Positions 2,358-45,536 of a DNA stretch of 64,000 nt are shown here, piece by piece. Source of the stretch: Octopus vulgaris (lineage: Eukaryota). Position 1 is the first letter of the stretch, and the number at the start of each line of letters is the position of its first letter. Both the position numbers and the translations under genes were made by a program. A model generated the notes under the pieces. It was not told the DNA's origin. It searched no databases and was given only the letters and a program-made list of their open reading frames with translations. The DNA is taken from contig OX597814.1 of assembly GCA_951406725.2 (NCBI GenBank), positions 190,774,001 through 190,838,000 on the forward strand, given 5' to 3'.

Positions 2358-2449
2358 GCAGTACATGCGTTTCGAACTTTATAAAACAACTTATTCTTAC
2401 ATCAATGTATAATCGACATAACAGATAGTTTAAAGCCCTCTTCAGCCGC
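2358..2449 (-). ncRNA. Type I hammerhead motif, inverted copy
   Basis: Minus strand reads gcgg-CTGAAGA-gggcttta...taaagttc-GAAA-cgcatg-TA-ctgc. Confidence 0.65.
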
Positions 2450-2703
2450 ATGCAATTGCTACACCAAAGACTTGTATCACATTATGAAAAGTCCGAAAAA
2501 GAACATTTGGTATTATTTATAATGGTAGGTATATTGAGTTTCACTGCGAAAGTATGTTTGTAAATCTTCATAATCAAATAGGTGTACAGCGTATTATTGG
2601 ACTTCGAAAATCCGTCCATATTGTATCATCAGTCAAATAATACCAAATGTTCTTTTTCGGACTTTTCATAATGTGATGTAATTCTTTGGTATAGCAATTG
2701 CAT

Positions 2704-2793
2704 GCGGCTGAAGAGGGCTTTAAACCATCTGTTATGTCGATTATATATTGATGTAAGAATAAATTGTTTTATAAAGCTCGAAACGTGTACCGC
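2704..2793 (+). ncRNA. Type I hammerhead ribozyme motif (minimal helix III)
   Basis: gcgg-CTGAAGA-gggcttta...taaagctc-GAAA-cgtg-TA-ccgc: 4-bp stem I, 8-bp stem II, intact core, GUA cleavage triplet. Confidence 0.75.
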
Positions 2794-5152: not shown

Positions 5153-6128
5153 ATGTGTGTGTGTATGTGTGTTGCTTATGCGCATGTGTACCATGTGTAT
5201 AATTAAAATACTGGAGATCTTGGAACATGATCCATAGTTGTCGTTGTATGAAATAAGCTTCTGATATTGGAGAGACACAGAAGTCCCTGAAATGCTAGAA
5301 GAACATAAGATACTAAGTACCCCACAAAAACGAATTCCAGTAGTAGCTTTGGAAAATATGAACTGAAGGCAAGGATTATGGCAGCATTCACCAACAATAG
5401 AAAATGTGAAACAGAAAAATATATAAAGGGGAACAACTTTGATGGACTTTGTGTCTATTTTAATAACATATTCTTTGTTTTTTGTATAAATATATTTAAT
5501 TACCGTATTTGATAGCACTTGAGATGCACTTTTCAACAAGGATATGTCTTGAAACACTGGGTCTATACTACATTTTTTAATGCAATAAAAACTTTTTTTC
5601 TTGAATATGTGCTGCTAAAATTGAGATTTGAGTAATATTCCAGGGCAACTTTTCTTACCATAAAAATACGGTAATATAAATAACAAATGCCATTAAAAAT
5701 ATAATTTTAAAAACACGTTTATTTGAATGACATTTTTTTCTGCATACATTATTTCAAATAACCCCGAAATAAAAGAAGGGTGAGTCTTACGTTTTAAACT
5801 TTCTTGTTATTGCTGTAGTAGTCACAGTGTGTGCAACTAAATTAACAGGGTTTTTCTCGCGTAAGAAATAAAATGAGCAGAAAAAAATCTGTAATTGTTA
5901 ATGTGCTTTAAGAGTTGTTTCCCTTGAACAAGTCATTCAAGCAATAGATACTGCAAAATGAAACATAAGAAAGACTAGAGTGGCAAAAATGTTAAAGCGT
6001 AAAAAAATCTTTGTCCGTAATATTTTGTTTAAGCCTCTCTGTGTTCTGAGTTATGCATGAATTTTTAACCCTAGCCTGAAGATTATATTTTCTAAGAAAG
6101 AATTGAGATTGTAATAATACATACATAT

Positions 6129-6495: not shown

Positions 6496-6797
6496 ATACA
6501 TACACACACATACATACACACACGTACATACATACATACATACATACACACATACATACATATGTATCCTAGGTATACAACTATATTCATAAGAATGCAT
6601 ACATAAAATAAGACATACAAATCTGCACATATACATACATACAAAAGTACCCTGTTGATGTCGAAATTCCAATGAAGGAGCCTTGGATCTAGCTTAGAAA
6701 CTGGCTCTTTCTCTGGTGGTAAGAAATCTTGCAATTAAACTGAACAATGACTACATACATACATACATACATAAAGTGTAGGTGGAATACAAGTGGG

Positions 6798-7203
6798 TAT
6801 ATATTATTTATAAAAAAGAAGCTTGAAAACATCACTATATAAGATAAATTTTAATTTTCTGTGAGATTTTACACTTTTTGGTTCTTCTTGAAAAAACGAA
6901 CCTTATCAAAAATATATATTTTTAAAAGTTAAGTCTAATAAAAAAGTTCATAATTGTTTCTCACTAGTCTCAACAGAATCCCCATGGTAGTGTTTTGTGT
7001 GTGGGAACATAATGGCTGTCTTGTGTGTTGACTAGAATCGTTGGCTATGAACTTTTTTATTACACTTAACTTTGAAAAATATATATTTTTGATAAGGTTC
7101 GTTTTTGCAAGAAGAACCGAAACATGTAAAATCTCTGAGAAAATTAGAATTTATCTTATATAGTGCCGTTTTCAAACTTCTGTTTTTTTATAAATAATAT
7201 ATA
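6798..7203. repeat. Foldback element with ~155-bp inverted arms and a hammerhead variant
   Basis: tatattatttataaaaaagaag...aaaagttcata is mirrored by tatgaactttt...ttttataaataatata. Confidence 0.85.
7085..7132 (+). ncRNA. Minimal hammerhead motif, U3-A8 core variant
   Basis: attt-TTGATAA-ggttc...gaacc-GAAA-catg-TA-aaat; helix III region ACATGT is self-complementary. Confidence 0.6.
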
Positions 7204-9440: not shown

Positions 9441-10407
9441 AGGACTTCTTGCATAATGATGAACCAACCTTTTTTGGCTTCTTGGTCCTTACCAATCATT
9501 TTTTATGACTATTGTTTACACTAAAGCTCAATTCTAATCTCTTGTGTCACAACCAGTATTCATTAGAAATTTATATAAACATGTTCAATAAATCTTAGAA
9601 TAAAAAAAATACTCTTATAGGTGCAGAAGTGGCTGTGTGGTAAGAAGCTTGCTTCCCAAACCACATGGTTCTGGGTTCAGTCCCACTGCATGGCATCTTG
9701 AGCAAGTGTCTTCTCTGTAGCCTTGGGCCAACAAAAGCCTTGTGAGTGGATTTGGTAGACAGAAACAGAAAGAAGCCCATCATATACATACATACATACA
9801 TATATATATATATATCTTCTTTTTCTTCTTCTTCCCTACCAAGAATTCACAATGACCTCAAATCCACAAGAGTAAACAAGAGAGACAGAAACAGGCAGAA
9901 ACAAAGAAAATTCCACTTGTATTTGAACACTATGCAAATATTCTTTTAAAAAACTTTTCTTTTAATTTTTCCAAAATTTAATTTTCAATACTTACAGTTG
10001 AAAATGTCTCAATGACTGAAACCGGTAATGAAATGTTTTTTACAAAATTATTTTAGCATTTTCTACCTTGACTTTTTTCCCATATGTGTGTGTATGTGTG
10101 TGTGTGTATTTGTGTGTCTGTGTTTGTCACCCCACCATCACTTGACAACCGATGTTGGTGTGTTTACATATATGATGTATAAAAACATGTAGCATACTAA
10201 TAAATATCTGTAAATATAAAACCATCCAGATTTCTGAGTACCTCATTTCTTCTAATATATAATACCTGTACGTCATCTCCAAACTTTCTAATATATATAT
10301 ATATATGAATTTAAAATAATAAGGGTGAAAAATTGAATATTAATTTGATTAAACCAGTGGTCTAGCATATTAAAATCTGAAGATACAGAAAAATTATATT
10401 ACATACA

Positions 10408-10601
10408 TATAAGAGGGATGACCACTACGTGGACAGACATATGCTAGAAGTAGATGTGGTATGGTCTTACCACTAAGAAAGGAATGTTCTCAAGAAAATT
10501 TTAACGTTTGCTGAAATTTTCTTGAGAACATTCCTTTCTTAGTGGCAAGACCATAGCAGATCTACTTCTAGCATATGGATGTCCACGTAGTGGTCATCCT
10601 T

Positions 10602-10607
<6 letters not shown>
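10408..10607. repeat. Near-perfect ~200-bp hairpin next to (TA)n
   Basis: ataagagggatgaccactacgtggaca... mirrors ...tgtccacgtagtggtcatccttcttat with a short loop. Confidence 0.9.
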
Positions 10608-10645
<38 letters not shown>

Positions 10646-10728
10646 GGTCCCGGGTTGATTCGGGGTTAACCACAGTAAGTAAGGTACTCAATACATAGCA
10701 GAGTAAAATTAATTTATTATATAGAAGG

Positions 10729-10779
10729 AGCTTCTACAGGACTAGTACTGTTTCATTCAAGAGAAATCTTCAGGAAGCT
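10729..10779 (-). ncRNA. Type I hammerhead motif, left arm
   Basis: Reverse complement of 13720-13770. Confidence 0.65.
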
Positions 10780-11117
10780 ATTTAACAAGAATTGTATTAG
10801 CATTTATACATTTAGGCAGGTTTAAAGGAGTGGTGGTGGGGGACTTTTTGGGGGTAGGCATAGCGCAAAATATCATACTCGGGGGAGTGGTCAAGGAGTC
10901 AGTGGTAAGTTAGATGAAAGAATAGATAAATAAAATAGATAAATAAAAAAATAAAAAAATAAAAAATAAAAAAAAAAAATAAAAAAAATAAAAAAAATAA
11001 AAAATATAAAAAAATATAAAAAAATATATATATAAAATATATATATATAAAAAAAAATATAAAAATATATATATAAAAAGGGGGGATAGAGTTATAGGTA
11101 AATAAGGAGATTCTCAC

Positions 11118-11177
11118 TTATACCTATACACACATGTATACGTATCTACACACACATACATACATACACATATATAT

Positions 11178-11234
<57 letters not shown>

Positions 11235-11691
11235 CCTACACATACACACATACATACATACAAATATACATATACATATATATATATATATATACAATCC
11301 AATACAGGCCCATTCCCTAATTTTAATTTTATTATCTTCATTTATTACTTTTGTTATCTTTGATCGCTAGGGCTAAGAATCCTGGCAATGGCTGCCTGTC
11401 CATTTGTCTGTCTACTAGAAGGCAAGTACTCATTCCCGCACGCACACTCATTAGCACGTACATTCACCCATTCGTACACTCATACACATACACGTACGCA
11501 CGCGTTATATTCATACATACAAACATCTACATACGTTCACGTATATACACATACGTACTCGTACCTACAGATTCGTGTCTACACTTTAGGAGGCTAGTCT
11601 ATACATATACACCAATAAATATACATATATATATATATACCCGCATATACATACACACACACACATATATACTCCTACATACAGATACATA

Positions 11692-11743
<52 letters not shown>

Positions 11744-11925
11744 CATACACATACACACATACATATACACACACATACATACACATATATATATACATAC
11801 ACAAACATATATACACACATATATATATACATACACACATACACACATACATACGTATACATACATACATACATCCATACATCCATACTTACATGCATTT
11901 ATACGCATACACACACCCATCTATA

Positions 11926-11959
<34 letters not shown>

Positions 11960-12239
11960 CACTCACACATACATATACAAATCTACGCACACACATACAT
12001 ACATACACGTATACGCATACACGCACATACACATATACATGCGTACCCATACACGTGCACACACGCACGCGCATCCATATATATACACACACACACATAT
12101 ATATACACGTGTGCAAACATACATACATACTCATACGCGCACACATACTTACAAATACATATATGCACCCACTTACACACATATATATACATACACATAT
12201 ACATGCATACATACATATATGCATACATACACACACGCA

Positions 12240-12291
<52 letters not shown>

Positions 12292-13341
12292 TATATACAT
12301 ATATAGACATATATACACATACATACACATACACATACATACACACATATACACATATATATATATATATACACATATACACATACATATATACACATAT
12401 ACATACATATACATACACACACACATACATATATACATATACACTGATACACATACCCATACATACACATGCATATACATATATCACTACATACTCACAT
12501 ATATAAACATACTAGCAGTATCGCCCGGCGTTGCTCAGGTTTGTAAGGGAAATAACTATAAAGCATTTTTAGAGAGTTATAGCCAAAAAATAGCAAAAAA
12601 ATGGAAAAAAAATGATGGTAAATTTTTTTGAGAGTTAAAGGTAGAGTTGCGTCCCCTAGACGGTCTGTGGTTTGGGTTTCTAATTCTCGACCCCATGTCG
12701 AATTTATCGATTTTTTTCAGAACTGGGGGAACTTTTCAAAATTTTCTCTGCGTTAGTTTTGAATTATGACATTGGGCTATGTGTGTGTCAAGTTTCATCA
12801 GAATCGGTTGAAAGCCGTGGTCAGAGTGAGGGTACGAGAAAACAGACACACAGAAACACGCACAGACAAACTGCCGTTTATATAGAGAGAGATATACATA
12901 TACACACATACATATATACATGTACATACACATACGTATGCATATATACATATATATATATACATATATATACACACATATATATATATATACATATATA
13001 CACACACACACACACATACATGTACACATATACATGTATACATACACAAAAATGATACACATATATACACATACACACACACAGACAGATGCATATACAT
13101 ACATATATATATATAAACTACATATCTATATAAATACATACATAATACACATATACACACACATATATATACATTCATGCATATACGTATACAAGTATAC
13201 ATACACATACATACACACACACGCGCACACATACATATACACACACACATATACAAATACATACATACACACATACACACACACACATATATACATATAT
13301 ATATATACATACATGTACACATATACATATGTATATATATA
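11118..13341. repeat. Very long degenerate (TA/CA/TACA)n microsatellite tract
   Basis: Seen directly; source of the spurious 426-aa HTYI-rich ORF. Confidence 0.95.
12512..12892 (-). mobile_element. Non-autonomous Helitron
   Basis: Minus strand starts TCTCTCTCTATATAAACGGCAG and ends cctgagcaacgccgggcgatactgCTAG; inserted between A and T with no TSD. Confidence 0.85.
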
Positions 13342-13719
13342 TCAACAAGGGAGGGTAAAGTTAATTAGTTATTAATCAATTTCATCAAGTGTTCAGTATG
13401 TAAAGGGACCATTATTATTTTGAGTAAACAATGTTAGAGGAAAAAAATTCTCTAAGTAGTGGAAGAGGCTAAAAAACTTTATTGGCTGCTATTTTTTTTT
13501 TTTATTTTTTTATTTTTTTATTTTATTTTTTTATTTTTTATTTTTTTATTTTTTTATTTATCTATTTTATTTATCTATTCTTTCATCTAACTTACCACTG
13601 ACTCCTTGACCACTCCCCCGAGTATGATATTTTGCGCTATGCCTACCCCCAAAAGTCCCCCACCACCACTCCTTTAAACCTGCCTAAATGTATAAATGCT
13701 AATACAATTCTTGTTAAAT

Positions 13720-13770
13720 AGCTTCCTGAAGATTTCTCTTGAATGAAACAGTACTAGTCCTGTAGAAGCT
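13720..13770 (+). ncRNA. Type I hammerhead ribozyme motif, right arm
   Basis: agcttc-CTGAAGA-t-ttc-tctt-gaa-t-GAAA-cag-tactagtc-ctg-TA-gaagct: 6-bp stem I, complete stem III, GUA triplet (cut after 13764); stem II closed by a U-U mismatch. Confidence 0.65.
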
Positions 13771-13781
13771 CCTTCTATATA

Positions 13782-13824
<43 letters not shown>

Positions 13825-13849
13825 GGACCCCAGGTTGGGAACCACTGAT

Positions 13850-13907
<58 letters not shown>

Positions 13908-13990
13908 CCGGTTCGAAGATGTATGTATGTATGTATGTGGACGTGTACGAACATGTGACACTAACGAGTTAAAACAGTACAAGTTAACTA

Positions 13991-14074
13991 TTTCGCGTTA
14001 ACACCGCATTTCGGCAAACTCTTGTTGCTAGGACAACTAAAGAATCTCAGCCAATGAAATCATTTGTTTTTGAA
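13991..14074 (+). promoter_or_regulatory. Putative CEP95 promoter: E2F-like TTTCGCG (13991), RFX X-box GTTGCTAGGACAAC (14024-14037), CCAAT (14051), CHR TTTGAA (14069)
   Basis: Four motifs within 85 bp of unique, CpG-containing sequence, just upstream of a consensus splice donor. Confidence 0.6.
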
Positions 14075-14880: not shown

Positions 14881-15514
14881 GAAGAGTGGTCCCGGTGCGT
14901 GCACTCGCGCTAGCTAGTCGATCCATACTTTGTTTTTGTGTTGTATTTTGTTTAAAAAAATTATTTACTTTGTTTTAAAAAAGTTACTTACTTTGTGTAA
15001 AAAAAAATTGGTAAAATTACAGATTAACACCCGCACGATTTTCCCTAAGAAAAAAAAAAACTCGGATTTTTTGCGTGGAATCAAGTACCCTGACCTCCTA
15101 ATATGCTGGAAATCCCATATTTCGGTTCGGAATTGGTCGGGAGCCCCCCCCCCCCCCGGAATTTTCACACAAAAAAGAACTCTGATTTTTTGCGTGGAAT
15201 CAAGTACTGTGACCTCGTAATATGCTGTAAATCCCATATTTGGGTTCGGAAGGGTGGGGGGGCAGCCCCCTCCCCCACCCTTCCGAACCGAAATATGGGA
15301 TTTACAGCATATTACGAGGTCACAGTACTTGATTCCACGCAAAAAATCAGAGTTCTTTTTTTTTAGTGAAAATCGTGCGGGTGTTAATCTGTAATTTTAC
15401 CAAAAAAGGTATTTATTTTGTGTTTTATTTACTTTGCTAGGTAGTCGTTGTAGGAGTGACTACTCACGACTAGCTAGCGCGAGTACGTGAGTGTGCGCAC
15501 CGGGACCACTCTTC
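14881..15514. mobile_element. Foldback MITE with TTAA flanks (Kolobok-like)
   Basis: TTAA|GAAGAGTGGTCCCGGTGCG...CGCACCGGGACCACTCTTC|TTAA; nested palindrome centred near 15265. Confidence 0.75.
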
Positions 15515-16050: not shown

Positions 16051-16683
16051 GGATCTTTTCCTTTTGAACGGCAGACAATTTCTAGTTAACTAAACACTTT
16101 TAAACTTCGTATACTGGTAGAATGTGTCAAAATAAAACATTTTTTTCTCTTGGCTTTCTTGAGAAAATTGTAATTTGTTTGTTTAACGTAGTTTAATTTT
16201 TCGAATTCTAACCAATCCTATGCTCTCTTTTGAGCTAAAATCATTTGCTGCGTCTAAAACTGAGACAACATCCTGTAACTAACCCTAAACCTCCCCCTAA
16301 CCCTAACCCTAAATTTATTTTTTTAATTGTTAAATTAATTTAATTGTTACGCGTGTAAAAAAAAACTAACGCAATGGAAAATAATTTAAACAATTAACAA
16401 ACAAAAAAAAATTAGGGTTAGCAGGAGGTTTAGGGTTAGTTACAGGATGTTATCTCAGTTTTAGACACAGCAAATGATTTTAGTTAAATGGAGGTAATCG
16501 ATTGGTTAAAATTGCCGAAATGCTCAGATTTTCAGACGAAATATCTTACAAACTATAGAATTTTCTCGATAAAACCAACAGAAAATGATGTTTTATAAAC
16601 ACATTCTACCAGTATACGAAGTTTAAAAGTGTTTAGTTACCTAGAAATTATGTTACAAACTGCCGTTCAAAAGGAAAAGATCC
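16051..16683. mobile_element. Foldback DNA transposon (Merlin- or MULE-like) with telomere-like core, copy 1
   Basis: TIR GGATCTTTTCCTTTTGAACGGCAG; exact 9-bp TSD GACGTGAGG (16042-16050, 16684-16692); CCCTAA and TTAGGG units inside. Confidence 0.85.
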
Positions 16684-18105: not shown

Positions 18106-19412
18106 ACACACACACATACATACACACACACATACATACACACATACATACATATACATACATACATACATATACATACATACATACACACACACACACA
18201 GTATTGAAGCTTGAGAACAATCAGATACATTTGCAACACATCTGTTGAAAATATTATTGTTCACACACATACATATATACATACAGACAGACAGACAGAT
18301 AGACACACACACACACGCACACACACACACACACACACATGATCCAGCATGGCCACAACCTCAAGGCTGAAACATATAAAAGAATAACAGAATATAAATG
18401 TGTGCAAAGTACAAGAAATATTAATGCAGTATATGGGGATTGGACAATAAGCATAAGGCAGTGTCAATGGTGGTTCCAGAAATTCCGAGCCATAAACTAC
18501 AGCCTAGAAGACGAGCCTCATCCTGAAAGATCTGTAGAACTCGACAAGGACATCCTGAAAACCCTGGTGGAACAAAATCTCATCGTAACTGTTGAGGAAC
18601 TAGCAGAGAAGCTTGGATTTGGTCATTCAACCATTCATTGAGACCTGTGTGCTATCGGAAAAGTCAGCAAATTGGGTCAATGGGTTCCTCACGAACTTTC
18701 CGAGTCTAATTGCATGCAGAGAGTGAATGTATGCTTTTCTTTGCTGTCATATCTCACCACTACTGCGCTATGTATATCTATATATATAAAACTGTAGTTG
18801 TGTGAGTGTCTGTCCCCTTCGATTTAGATTCCTAACTACTCCCACATTTTGCGGTACAGTTTAACCAAATTCGGGTAGCTTATAGTCGTGATTCATATCG
18901 AGCCCGTCTGAATATTAGCGCGCGTCTACGATGAGTCTACGATTTTAAAAATAATTTAACATCATTTTTTATTCCATTTTAATGCATAATTTTTCGTGTG
19001 TCGATGGCGGCGGAGTTGGCGTCCACGCTCACACCTGCACCTGTGGGGAAGGGAGTGTAAGGAAATCAACGTCGTAATGCGTTGTCAAGGAGACCAGTGT
19101 TCTTTTAGAACAACGACTTCATGGCTTGAAGACACCAAAACAGAAATGGCTAAGAAAGCGTCTACATGAGTCTACGATTTAAAAAAAAATTTACCATCGT
19201 TTTTTTCCATTTTAATGCATTTTTTCGCTATTATATAAGGGAAGTAACTCTCTAAAAATGTCTACGATGAGTCAACGATTTTTAAAAAAATTTACCATCA
19301 TATTTTTTCCATTTTTAATGCATTTTTTGCTATTTTTTTGCTATAACTCTCTAAAAATGCTTATATAGTTATTTCCCTTACAAACCCGAGCAACGCCGGG
19401 CGATACTGCTAG
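17577..19412 (+). mobile_element. Composite non-autonomous Helitron, copy 1
   Basis: A|TCTCTTATTATAAAAGGCAG ... hairpin cccgagcaacgccggg, CTAG|T; second Helitron 5' end TCTATATATATAAAACTG at 18777. Confidence 0.85.
18405..18750 (+). pseudogene. Mariner transposase N-terminal fragment inside the Helitron
   Basis: STRNINAVYGD...QWWFQKFR...SLEDEPHPERS...TVEELAEKLGFGHSTIH*DLCAIGKVSKLGQWVPHEL: two HTH regions and the WVPHEL linker; in-frame stop. Confidence 0.9.
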
Positions 19413-23230: not shown

Positions 23231-23988
23231 GGATCTTTTCCTTTTGAATGGCAATTTTCAACAAAATTTCTAGTTAACTAAACACTTTTAAATTTTGTAT
23301 ACTGGTAGAATGTGTCAAAATAAAACATTTTTTTCTCTTGGCTTTCTTGAGAAAATTGTAATTTGTAAGTTTAACGTAGTTTAATTTTTCGAATTTTAAC
23401 CAATCAATCGCCTCTAATTGAGCTAAAATCATTTGCTGCATCTAAAACTGAGACAACATCCTGTCGCTGTTATGTTTACGTACGGAATGTTTACATACGG
23501 AAAGTGTGTGTATAAAATTATAGAATTATTTTGTTTGTTAATTGTTTAAATTATTTTCCATTGCTTTCATTTTAGCCTTTTGTTTTGTTTTTTTATCTTA
23601 AGCAATGGAAAATAGTTTAAACAATACACATGTATCTCAAAACAAAAACAAAACGAATAATTTTAGACACACGCGTAACAATTAAATTAATTTAACAATT
23701 AAGAAAAAAAAACCGAAAGGCTAAAATTTAGGGTTAGGGTTAGAGTTAGTGTGACAGGATGTTGTCTCAGTTTTAGACGCAGCAAATGATTTTAGCTCAA
23801 TTAGAGGCGATTGATTGGTTAAAATTCGAAAAATTAAACTACGTTAAACTTACAAATTACAATTTTCTCAAGAAAGCCAAGAGAAAAAAAATGTTTTATT
23901 TTGACACATTCTACCAGTATACGAAGTTTAAAAGTGTTTAGTTAACTAGAAATTGTGTTGAAAACTGCCGTTCAAAAGGAAAAGATCC
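23231..23988. mobile_element. Foldback DNA transposon with telomere-like core, copy 2
   Basis: Same TIRs as 16051; flanks gatttggg / gatttggt; tttagggttagggttagagttag at ~23727-23750. Confidence 0.85.
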
Positions 23989-28251: not shown

Positions 28252-29518
28252 TACATACACACACACATACATACATACATATACATACATACATACACAC
28301 ACACACATACACACACACACAGTATTGAAGCTTGAGAACAATCAGATACATTTGCAACACATCTGTTGAAAATATTATTGTTCACACACATACATATACA
28401 TATATACATACAGACAGACAGACAGATAGACACACACACACACATGATCCAGCATGGCCACAACCTCAAGGCTGAAACATATAAAAGAATAACAGAATAT
28501 AAATGTGTGCAAAGTACAAGAAATATTAATGCAGTATATGGGGATTGGACAATAAGCGTAAGGCAGTGTCAATGGTGGTTCCAGAAATCCCGAGCCATAA
28601 ACTACAGCCTAGAAGACGAGCCTCATCCTGAAAGATCTGTAGAACTCGACAAGGACATCCTGAAAACCCTGGTGGAACAAAATCTCATCGTAACTGTTGA
28701 GGAACTAGCAGAGAAGCTTGGATTTGGTCATTCAACCATTCATTGACACCTGTGTGCTATCGGAAAAGTCAGCAAATTGGGTCAATGGGTTCCTCACGAA
28801 CTTTCCGAGTCTAATTGCATGCAGAGAGTGAATGTATGCTTTTCTTTGCTGTCATATCTCACCACTACTGCACTATGTATATCTATATATATAAAACTGT
28901 AGTTGTGTGAGTGTCTGTCCCCTTCGATTTAGATTCCTAACTACTCCCACATTTTGCGGTACAGTTTAACCAAATTCGGGTAGCTTATAGTCGTGATTCA
29001 TATCGAGCCCGTCTGAATATTAGCGCGCGTCTACGATGAGTCTCCGATTTAAAAAATAATTTAACATCATTTTTTATTCCATTTTAATGCATAATTTTTC
29101 GTGTGTCGATGGCGGCGGAGTTGGCGTCCACGCTCACATCTGCACCTGTGGGGAAGGGAGTGTAAGGAAATCAACGTCGTAATGCATTGTCAAGGAGACC
29201 AGTGTTCTTTTAGAACAACGACTTCATGGCTTCAAGACACCAAAACAGAAATGGCTAAGAAAGCGTCTACATGAGTCTACGATTTAAAAAAAAATTTACC
29301 ATCGTTTTTTTTCCATTTTAATGCATTTTTTCGCTATTATATAAGGGAAGTAACTCTCTAAAAATGTCTACGATGAGTCAACGATTTTAAAAAAATTTAC
29401 CATCATATTTTTTCCATTTTTAATGCATTTTTTGCTATTTTTTGGCTATAACTCTCTAAAAATGCTTATATAGTTATTTCCCTTACAAACCCGAGCAACG
29501 CCGGGCGATACTGGCTAG
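27751..29518 (+). mobile_element. Composite non-autonomous Helitron, copy 2, inside a family A SINE
   Basis: Near-identical to 17577-19412 with the same termini, A|TC...CTAG|T, but unrelated flanks; mariner fragment at ~28512-28855. Confidence 0.85.
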
Positions 29519-40750: not shown

Positions 40751-40806
40751 GTAAGTGAATAAAATTTTACAGAAAGTATAGAGTATTAGTAAAATAATGT
40801 TATCAT

Positions 40807-41160
40807 CTGTTGTGTCTGGGGAGAGTCATTTTCTTTTTGTGCCTTATTATGTAACACACTCACTGGTAAAATTTCCACTTTTTTCTTATTTTTATTTTCC
40901 TAAAATTTTTGTTGCGTCTTGCAACCTTTTCAATAGTTTTGAGTCAAAATTTTTGTTGTGTCTTGCAACCTTTTCAATAGTTTTGAGTCAAAATTTTCGT
41001 TGCGTCTTGCAACCTTTTCAGTAGTCTTGACTATTGAAAAGGTTGCAACACGCAACGAAAATTTTAGGACAATAAAAATAAGAAAAAAGTGGAAATTTTA
41101 CTGGTGAGTGTGTTACATAATAAGGTGCAAAAAGAAAATGACTCTCCCCAGACATAACAG
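40807..41160. repeat. Foldback element with a triplicated ~42-bp hammerhead-like unit
   Basis: ctgttgtgtctggggagagtc... mirrors ...gactctccccagacataacag; unit aaaattttcgttgcgtcttgcaaccttttcaatag occurs three times in the left arm. Confidence 0.85.
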
Positions 41161-41261
41161 AATATGCTTCAATACACGAACTCATATAAAGAATCTTGCA
41201 AACCAAATCCAAAAACGAAATGTTATCATCATCATCATCATTTAACACTTGTTTTCCAAAT

Positions 41262-42300: not shown

Positions 42301-42611
42301 AATAAATAGTAATAATGTGTTTTGAATGACACAACAGTGCACTATAATAACAACAATGGACTATAATAACTGGTGTCATTTAATCATTTATAGTCTGATA
42401 TAATATTTCGAAATATAAAAATTCTTTCTTCAGATATCCCTAGGGATTGATTGGGAAAATCAGTTGTAGCAGTGACTTGATCAATTCCTAGGGATATCTG
42501 ATGAAAGAATTTTTATATTCCGAAATATTATATCAGACTATGGATGATTAAATTACATCAGTTATCATAGTGCACTGTTGTGCCATTCTAAACACTTTAT
42601 TACTGTTTATT
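42301..42611. repeat. Foldback element with hammerhead-core motifs in both arms
   Basis: Mirrored arms; gatat-CTGATGA...GAAA-tatt-atatc at 42493-42534 and an inverted CTGAAGA copy at ~42397-42439. Confidence 0.8.
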
Positions 42612-44805: not shown

Positions 44806-45536
44806 TATACACATACATATATGTATGTATCCTTTTATTCTTTTACTTGTTTCAGTCATTAGACTGTGGCCATGTTTAGGCACCACTTTGAAGAATTTTA
44901 GTTGAACGTGTCTTCTAATATAGCCTCAAGCCAATCAAAGCTTTGAATGGATTTGGCAGATGTAAACTAAAAGAAGCTTGTTATGTGAGTGTGTGTGTGT
45001 GCGCGTGTTTGTCCCCCACCACTGCTTGTTGGTTTGTTTATGTCCCCGTAACTTAGCAGTTTGGCAAGAGACTGACAGAATAAGCAACAAGCTTAAAGAA
45101 AATAAGAACTAGCGTTGTTCCATCATCATCATCATTTAATGTCCGCTTTCCATGCTGGCATGGGTTGGACTGTTTGACTGGGGACTGGTGAGCCAGATGG
45201 CTGCACCAGGTGATGATGATGATGATGGAACAACCCTAGTTCTTATTTTCTTTAAGCTTGTTATTTATTCTGTCAGTCTCTTGCCAAACTGCTAAGTTAC
45301 GGGGGACATAAACACACCAAGGAGCAGTGGTGGGGGACAAACACATACACACACACACACTCGCATAACAAGCTTCTTTTAGTTTCCATCTACCAAATCC
45401 ATTCAAAGCCTTGGTTGGCTTGAGGCTATATTAGAAGACACTTGCTCAAGGTGCCATGCAGTGGGTTTGAACGCAGAACCATGTGGTTGGGAAGCAAACT
45501 TCATACCACACAGCTGTGCCTCTCTATGTGTCTATG

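Follow-up and report, generated by a model that had tools for sequence, protein, structure and literature searches.

Inverted truncated copies with long-loop hammerhead motifs in Octopus vulgaris, a probable scar of a Penelope-like retroelement insertion

The metazoan Penelope-like elements (PLEs) carry minimal type I hammerhead ribozymes (min-HHRs). In the available text of Cervera and de la Pena 2014 (PMC4209133) these are described with a helix II of 7-8 bp, a helix I of 4-5 bp and a palindromic helix III. They cut weakly and cleave as dimers, and pairs of minimal hammerheads on opposite strands, separated by 100-700 bp, were considered probable truncated PLEs. The published min-HHR descriptor allows 3-10 nt for loop 2 and a minimal GAAANNUH segment, with a base after A9 that is usual but optional (PMC4209133). 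According to the accessible part of Craig et al. 2021 (PMC8557442), PLE insertions display an adjacent inverted truncated copy, a one-sided tail of 30-40 bp and (TA)n targets. The same source lists Hydra-1_Obim, a Hydra-clade element of Octopus bimaculoides with a hammerhead, and Penelope-13_HM, which has hammerheads on both strands; several of its Hydra-clade motifs also do without the unpaired base after A9.

The purified PAc protein (Poseidon, Anolis) nicks and extends both strands at AT-rich DNA (Frangieh et al. 2024, PMC11167929). In the same account, two reverse transcription start sites delimit the PAc tail, and the hammerhead cuts only with the element protein and is dispensable for insertion in vitro. 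Retrozymes are direct tandem repeats with one hammerhead per unit (PMC7229834; bioRxiv 10.64898/2026.07.22.740005); those of animals carry type I hammerheads and have been proposed to be derivatives of PLE ends (bioRxiv 10.64898/2026.07.22.740005, in the part available). The arrangement reported here is already known, from opposite-strand pairs attributed to truncated PLEs in 2014 (PMC4209133) and an octopus hammerhead element in 2021 (PMC8557442), both in their accessible portions. The unusual feature is the long structured helix II alone.

Within the window, by which we mean the whole 64,000-nucleotide stretch of Octopus vulgaris DNA analysed, the locus is made up of the following features.

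2043-2242, no strand: left (TA)n/(TG)n microsatellite, a likely target (from the sequence)
2243-2320, minus: one-sided 3' tail of about 78 nt, in the long copy only, its outer end blurring into (TA)n (from loose ends of X5 contigs)
2321-2518, minus: left arm, the stretch of the long copy matching the right arm in inverse orientation (arm comparison)
2358-2449, minus: type I hammerhead of the long copy (C3 at 2445, A17 at 2362)
2519-2636, minus: apparent spacer, a 5' extension of the minus copy that joins the plus copy at 2635/2636 (X11 record 9)
2635-2830, plus: right arm, a short 5'-truncated copy that runs directly into (TA)n (arm comparison; ten X4 contigs pass into (TA)n behind 2830)
2704-2793, plus: type I hammerhead of the short copy (core 2708-2714 and 2780-2783; pattern search and folding)
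2831-2950, no strand: right (TA)n/(TG)n microsatellite, a likely target (from the sequence)

The insertion is a long minus-strand copy (2243-2636) placed head to head with a short plus-strand copy (2635-2830), the tails pointing outward. The first-pass annotation had drawn the foldback between 2358 and 2793; its inverted arms are real, but it is larger, with arms at 2321-2518 and 2635-2830 and an insertion reaching to about 2243. Over 196/198 nt the arms differ by 9 substitutions and a single 2-nt gap, and their hammerhead cores are 263 bp apart. The element matches nothing in the window except its own opposite arm, and no ORF was evident in 322 nt of the long copy. No direct repeat was found at the locus, where a target-site duplication would be hidden because microsatellites flank both sides.

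The apparent spacer reads as element sequence. X11 record 9 runs from 2636 to 2503 on the minus strand and continues into the arm, with 659 letters preceding the match, and loose ends behind 2636 were observed in five X1 contigs. Behind 2830, the consensus of six X5 contigs (median 68 nt) agreed with minus-strand 2320-2291 at 24 of 30 letters when compared by eye. Since these six contigs carry tail-like letters and the ten X4 contigs enter (TA)n directly, we regard 2243-2320 as an optional tail. Two hairpins form when this tail is folded; the ACC loop of one is reminiscent of the AC-rich stem loop at which PAc reverse transcription begins. GTAAGT is present both here and in the tail of a second foldback (10642-10711), on the strand opposite the hammerhead. 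Splicing from the tail GTAAGT to the AG at 2693-2694, which would free the hammerhead, was rejected: no loose end falls at 2695 among those listed, and G2694 varies in the family.

In the plus copy, stem I is formed by 2704-2707 and 2790-2793 and reaches 5 bp when the flanking U-G is included. The core consists of CUGAAGA (2708-2714) and GAAA (2780-2783), with U16.1 at 2788 and A17 at 2789. Helix II pairs 2715-2722 with 2772-2779 over 8 bp, beginning with G10.1-C11.1, and closes a loop II of 49 nt (2723-2771) that contains an inner 10-bp hairpin. The base between A9 and 10.1 is absent, G2715 pairing directly with C2779. Both copies contain C3 U4 G5 A6 N7 G8 A9, G12 A13 A14, A15.1-U16.1 and H17, both have GUA as the cut triplet, and in both the core is flanked by a 5-bp helix I (the open end) and an 8-bp helix II, which was present in all predicted folds of the motif. 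The canonical-core hammerhead with a long loop II that had been claimed for 2358-2793 is therefore present at those positions on both strands, and the predicted position of the cut, after A2789, agrees with standard hammerhead numbering. The cut site lies 41 nt from the end of the short copy and, in the long copy, 119 nt from the end of the tail.

The minus-strand motif had been described as a mirror of the plus-strand one, with stem-keeping G-U substitutions. Both G-U pairs are there, one in stem I and one in stem II, and derive from C-to-T changes (plus equivalents 2777 and 2791), but the mirror is inexact: the helix III segment is ACGUGU on plus and ACGCAUGU on minus, 2 nt having been lost from the plus copy. 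Reading the wobbles as a sign of selection did not hold up. They make up only two of the nine arm differences and, because they are plain C-to-T changes, one of them at a CpG, amid scattered arm differences, they provide no evidence that this locus is under selection. We also dropped a type III interpretation of the minus copy: no helix I forms in it, and the pairing in question is a competing helix.

As in the min-HHRs of PMC4209133, the motif is of type I with a helix II of 8 bp, a helix I of 4-5 bp, G10.1-C11.1 and a short palindromic helix III, and the spacing of the opposite-strand pair falls within 100-700 bp. Unlike the motifs described in the available text of that paper, it has a loop II of 49 nt with an inner hairpin, as opposed to 3-10 nt, no extra base after A9, and a helix III region of 6-8 nt in place of the minimal 4. 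Because the loop is 49 nt and the segment 2-4 nt longer, we file the motif as a long-loop relative and not as a strict min-HHR.

Searched with a strict descriptor, the window gave 2 sites, whereas all 200 dinucleotide shuffles gave none; the descriptors had been written after the motif was seen, and the two arms count as one event, not two. With a looser descriptor 5 sites were found, compared with a shuffle mean of 0.075 and a maximum of 1; a further descriptor with local shuffles gave 3 sites against a mean of 0.07 over 100 shuffles. Rfam returned zero matches at gathering score over the whole window, and on 2240-2840 none of its hammerhead families matched even at E values up to 10. Five sub-threshold Rfam matches, bicoid_3 first among them, were attributed to the long hairpin. 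The fold energy of the whole motif was no better than that of shuffles (z -0.3 to -1.6). Approximately 1 in 10 shuffles (222 and 193 of 2,000) equalled the hairpin inside loop II, and for this reason we treat that hairpin as suggestive only. Pattern scans gave 0 loci in viral contigs and 0 in prokaryote genomes. The same kind of scan yielded 38 loci in metagenome contigs, with 0 BLAST matches to the element and a helix II of at most 7 bp, which were set aside as chance or unrelated.

Contigs of four public sequencing runs were compared with 2490-2832; the stretch is contained in 20 runs, and the four used come from four studies and three organisms. The stretch behaved as a many-copy repeat, with 982, 1033, 289 and 66 contigs in the four runs, all of these data, including X11 (perhaps an RNA run), being contigs that cannot show RNA ends and whose depth is no copy number. 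Summed depth in X1 was approximately 20-fold higher over the hammerhead (up to 293,000) than over the 5'-most part (12,000-14,000), a gradient that we take only as fitting 5' truncation because depth is no copy number. The 2635/2636 junction of this locus was bridged by 0 of the 32 pieces listed (of 2,387). Three other head-to-head joints were seen, 2624>2725, 2633>2730 and 2636>2788, all in contigs of depth 20-295, and no joint running backward was listed among the contig joints. The start of the short copy thus varies by foldback (2635, 2725, 2730 and 2788). In the three other joints the end of the longer copy falls at 2624, 2633 and about 2643, near the 2636 found here, and matching stops at 2620 in three listed contigs from three runs. 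On these small numbers, a preferred 5' boundary at 2620-2643 is possible.

Variation among the copies was compatible with the folded motif. All nine variants at 10% or more of depth within 2703-2794 retain or add pairs or fall in loops, and the core is untouched; the crude chance of such structure-compatible variation is 0.007, or 0.017 when the two variants used to set the register are left out. G2716A accounts for 74-97% of depth in the four runs and turns a helix II G-U into A-U. Both arms at this locus carry G at 2716, as would be expected if both come from one template or subfamily. In common family forms helix III is a perfect palindrome (ACAUAUGU), and loose ends behind 2784 occur in 10 X1 and 4 X5 contigs. 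U at 11.1 is also common in the family, with 38% of X1 depth and loose ends in 27, 69, 14 and 2 contigs. It weakens the conserved G10.1-C11.1 pair and counts against a fully canonical family.

Helix III limits what the motif could do on its own. In the monomer it comprises 1 bp (plus) or 2 bp (minus), and the active fold was predicted to hold a share of 1e-5 (plus) or 2e-3 (minus) of the ensemble in a model that leaves aside tertiary contacts and Mg2+. In a dimer, 6 of 6 (plus) and 6 of 8 (minus) helix III positions are pairable, with duplexes of -3.1 and -5.8 kcal/mol. Given the 1-2 bp of helix III, and the dimers or protein on which such motifs reportedly depend, a monomer transcript would likely fail to cleave even without the antisense arm. 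When the 2243-2836 transcript of either strand was folded, the ten core bases were unpaired with a probability of at most 0.003; the duplex with the antisense amounted to -134 or -146 kcal/mol, compared with -19.5 or -17 for the motif's own fold, and the antisense arm would be transcribed first in both directions. The proposal that the foldback blocks cleavage is hence physically sound in so far as the core is predicted to be buried. We saw no sign of a control device, however, and known insertion geometry explains the arrangement; the modelled burial is likely a by-product of that geometry and not a switch.

We read the locus as the decaying scar of one PLE insertion, with a probability of roughly 85%. 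As in endonuclease-bearing PLEs (Hydra, Neptune and Poseidon), 5' truncation is variable and an inverted truncated copy sits directly at the 5' end, here and at the three other joints; the tail is at one end only, the hammerhead lies near the 3' end, as in the 3' pseudo-LTR of PLEs, and insertion is into (TA)n, as for Hydra and Neptune. The assignment to PLEs, which is likely, is made from 3'-end fragments, and the defining single ORF with PLE-type RT and GIY-YIG endonuclease would lie outside the sequence seen. When 100 of the window's 155 complex stop-free frames of at least 70 aa were scanned against Pfam, no RT or GIY-YIG domain was detected. A (TA)n target together with a hammerhead close to the 3' end makes a Hydra- or Neptune-type clade likely for the parent.

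The resemblance to the Hydra-clade PLEs of PMC8557442, as given in its accessible part, extends to the (TA)n target, a hammerhead situated some 100-170 nt before the 3' end (119 nt from cut site to tail end here), a near-palindromic helix III of 3-4 bp, and an inverted 5'-truncated copy that results in hammerheads on both strands. Against the 49 nt of loop II here, loop 2 measures 3-10 nt in those elements and reaches at most 35 nt across the entire table (PLE-X1_sMoe). By eye, the element sequence differs from Hydra-1_Obim and from the 3' end of Naiad_Obim. Three short element motifs had no match in Naiad_Ovul or Naiad_Obim in the supplement of PMC8557442, a format in which line breaks could hide one. 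Against the PLE assignment count the tail, which is longer than published (about 78 nt versus 30-40 bp in the available text of PMC8557442), the loop II outside the descriptor, the lack of an extra base after A9 and the common U at 11.1.

An insertion of this kind could be produced as follows. On the model of published work, the element endonuclease would nick both strands of an AT-rich target, and the RT would prime on each strand, using one of two RNA start sites each, to give one copy with and one without the tail. Both reverse-transcribed copies would stop early and then join head to head, the joining being our own addition to the scheme in the accessible part of PMC11167929. PAc belongs to another clade and host, and its likeness to this locus is one of mechanism, not of sequence comparison (PMC11167929, in the part available). 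Hammerheads in the tandem RNA of the parent element would cleave by way of the palindromic helix III, either as dimers or assisted by protein. Read-through RNA of this locus would contain one sense hammerhead and its antisense, forming a long hairpin predicted to be unable to cut.

It is unlikely that the locus is instead a non-autonomous foldback, derived from a PLE end, that is mobile as a unit, either as MITE-like DNA or as RNA from one or the other strand, copied in trans, its antisense arm silencing the ribozyme. Long inverted arms in (TA)n and the predicted burial of the core would suit such a unit, and the three other joints lie in contigs whose depth could mean that some foldbacks spread as units, with the longer copy ending close to 2636 each time (2624-2643). 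Contig depth is no copy number, however. The short copy starts differently each time, this junction occurs in none of the 32 pieces listed, the spacer continues into further sequence, the tail is one-sided, and the arms differ at 9 sites and a gap. Where a MITE or foldback DNA transposon would be expected to show fixed terminal inverted repeats and a fixed inner sequence common to all copies, the junctions vary, the ends are unequal and the inner part is element body, among the 32 of 2,387 pieces listed. We regard as distinctly unlikely a broader version in which helix II has grown into a structured domain of 65 nt, selected in the source elements as a protein docking site, and the head-to-head products are mobile, antisense-gated hairpins copied from either strand. 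If this were true, it would define a large uncounted class that escapes both Rfam and the descriptor.

A fragment of a non-LTR retrozyme or of a SINE-like non-autonomous family, with a type I hammerhead, no coding body and insertion as an inverted pair, is highly unlikely. The 322 nt of long copy without an evident ORF would agree with it, as would the type I hammerheads of animal retrozymes and their proposed origin from PLE ends (bioRxiv 10.64898/2026.07.22.740005, in the part available). Like the non-LTR retrozymes in the accessible text of de la Pena and Cervera 2020 (PMC7229834), the element is a non-coding animal repeat with a type I hammerhead. Unlike them, it is an inverted truncated pair, whereas theirs are direct tandem arrays that give rise to circular RNAs; there is no direct repeat at the locus, and no backward joint was listed.

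That the host has adopted the foldback to regulate a neighbouring gene such as CEP95, as a hairpin or a ribozyme switch, is barely credible. An exon at 30.0 kb identified this gene (98% to Octopus sinensis, 92% to O. bimaculoides), a match that would place the window in an Octopus close to O. sinensis, and 16 segments matched to the O. sinensis protein place its exons on the plus strand from 25,926 to 60,823. The first nine residues of CEP95 and those after 670 were not located within the window, the former a point in favour of such a role. Against it, the first located exon lies 23 kb downstream of the foldback. The two arms, moreover, have drifted by scattered changes, including the 2-nt loss in plus-copy helix III, and the layout recurs in three unrelated repeats of the window. 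Closer to the element, the two frames of 5174-5482 had no homologue that would indicate a host gene beside it. Finally, the odds of a chance hammerhead-core match inside an inverted repeat are negligible, the missing Rfam match and unremarkable fold energy notwithstanding, given 0 in 200 shuffles, structure-compatible family variation and the same motif class in three other foldbacks.

The gain is modest: a many-copy octopus family with a hammerhead that has a structured loop II of 49 nt. We found no published account of this octopus family in the literature; Repbase and Dfam may contain it. Because Rfam and the published descriptor miss a motif with a 49-nt loop, PLE hammerhead counts may be low. 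Should the long arm be a protein-binding or chaperone site, it would bear on what PLE hammerheads do.

Three further hammerhead foldbacks in the window, unrelated to that at 2243-2830, have the same tail-out layout.

6770-7203 (arms 6798-7203), plus: foldback from a different family; core UUGAUAA (U3-A8 variant) at 7089, helix III ACAUGU
10642-13787 (pair 10712-13787): inverted pair whose arms carry identical hammerheads (C3 at 10773 on minus and 13726 on plus)
42301-42611: small foldback whose minimal hammerheads are separated by 65 bp, with helix III AUAU, C3 at 42433 on minus and about 42499 on plus

The U3-A8 variant at 7089 is one described in the available text of PMC4209133. In its foldback (6798-7203) the GAAA of the left copy is broken, and approximately 28 extra letters are present on the left side only. 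The 10712-13787 pair is extended by about 70 nt on its left side only, and its arms are separated by 2.5 kb, most of it microsatellite. Its hammerheads have a full 4-bp helix III, like Hydra-clade motifs, and are the window's best candidate for monomer cleavage. Tail homology between the different foldbacks was weak, the score being reached by 66, 10 and 20 of 500 shuffles.

Elsewhere in the window, a foldback in (TA)n at 10308-10621 has a left-only extension and no hammerhead under the descriptors used; possibly it is a PLE end that is truncated further or has no ribozyme. Mariner (Mos1-type HTH_48) transposase fragments lie at 18303-18638 and 28336-28743. The descriptors detected no hammerhead in five other foldbacks or inverted pairs, at 15008-15403, 16051-16683, 23231-23988, 40806-41161 and 44908-45441, of which those at 16051-16683 and 23231-23988 have identical ends.
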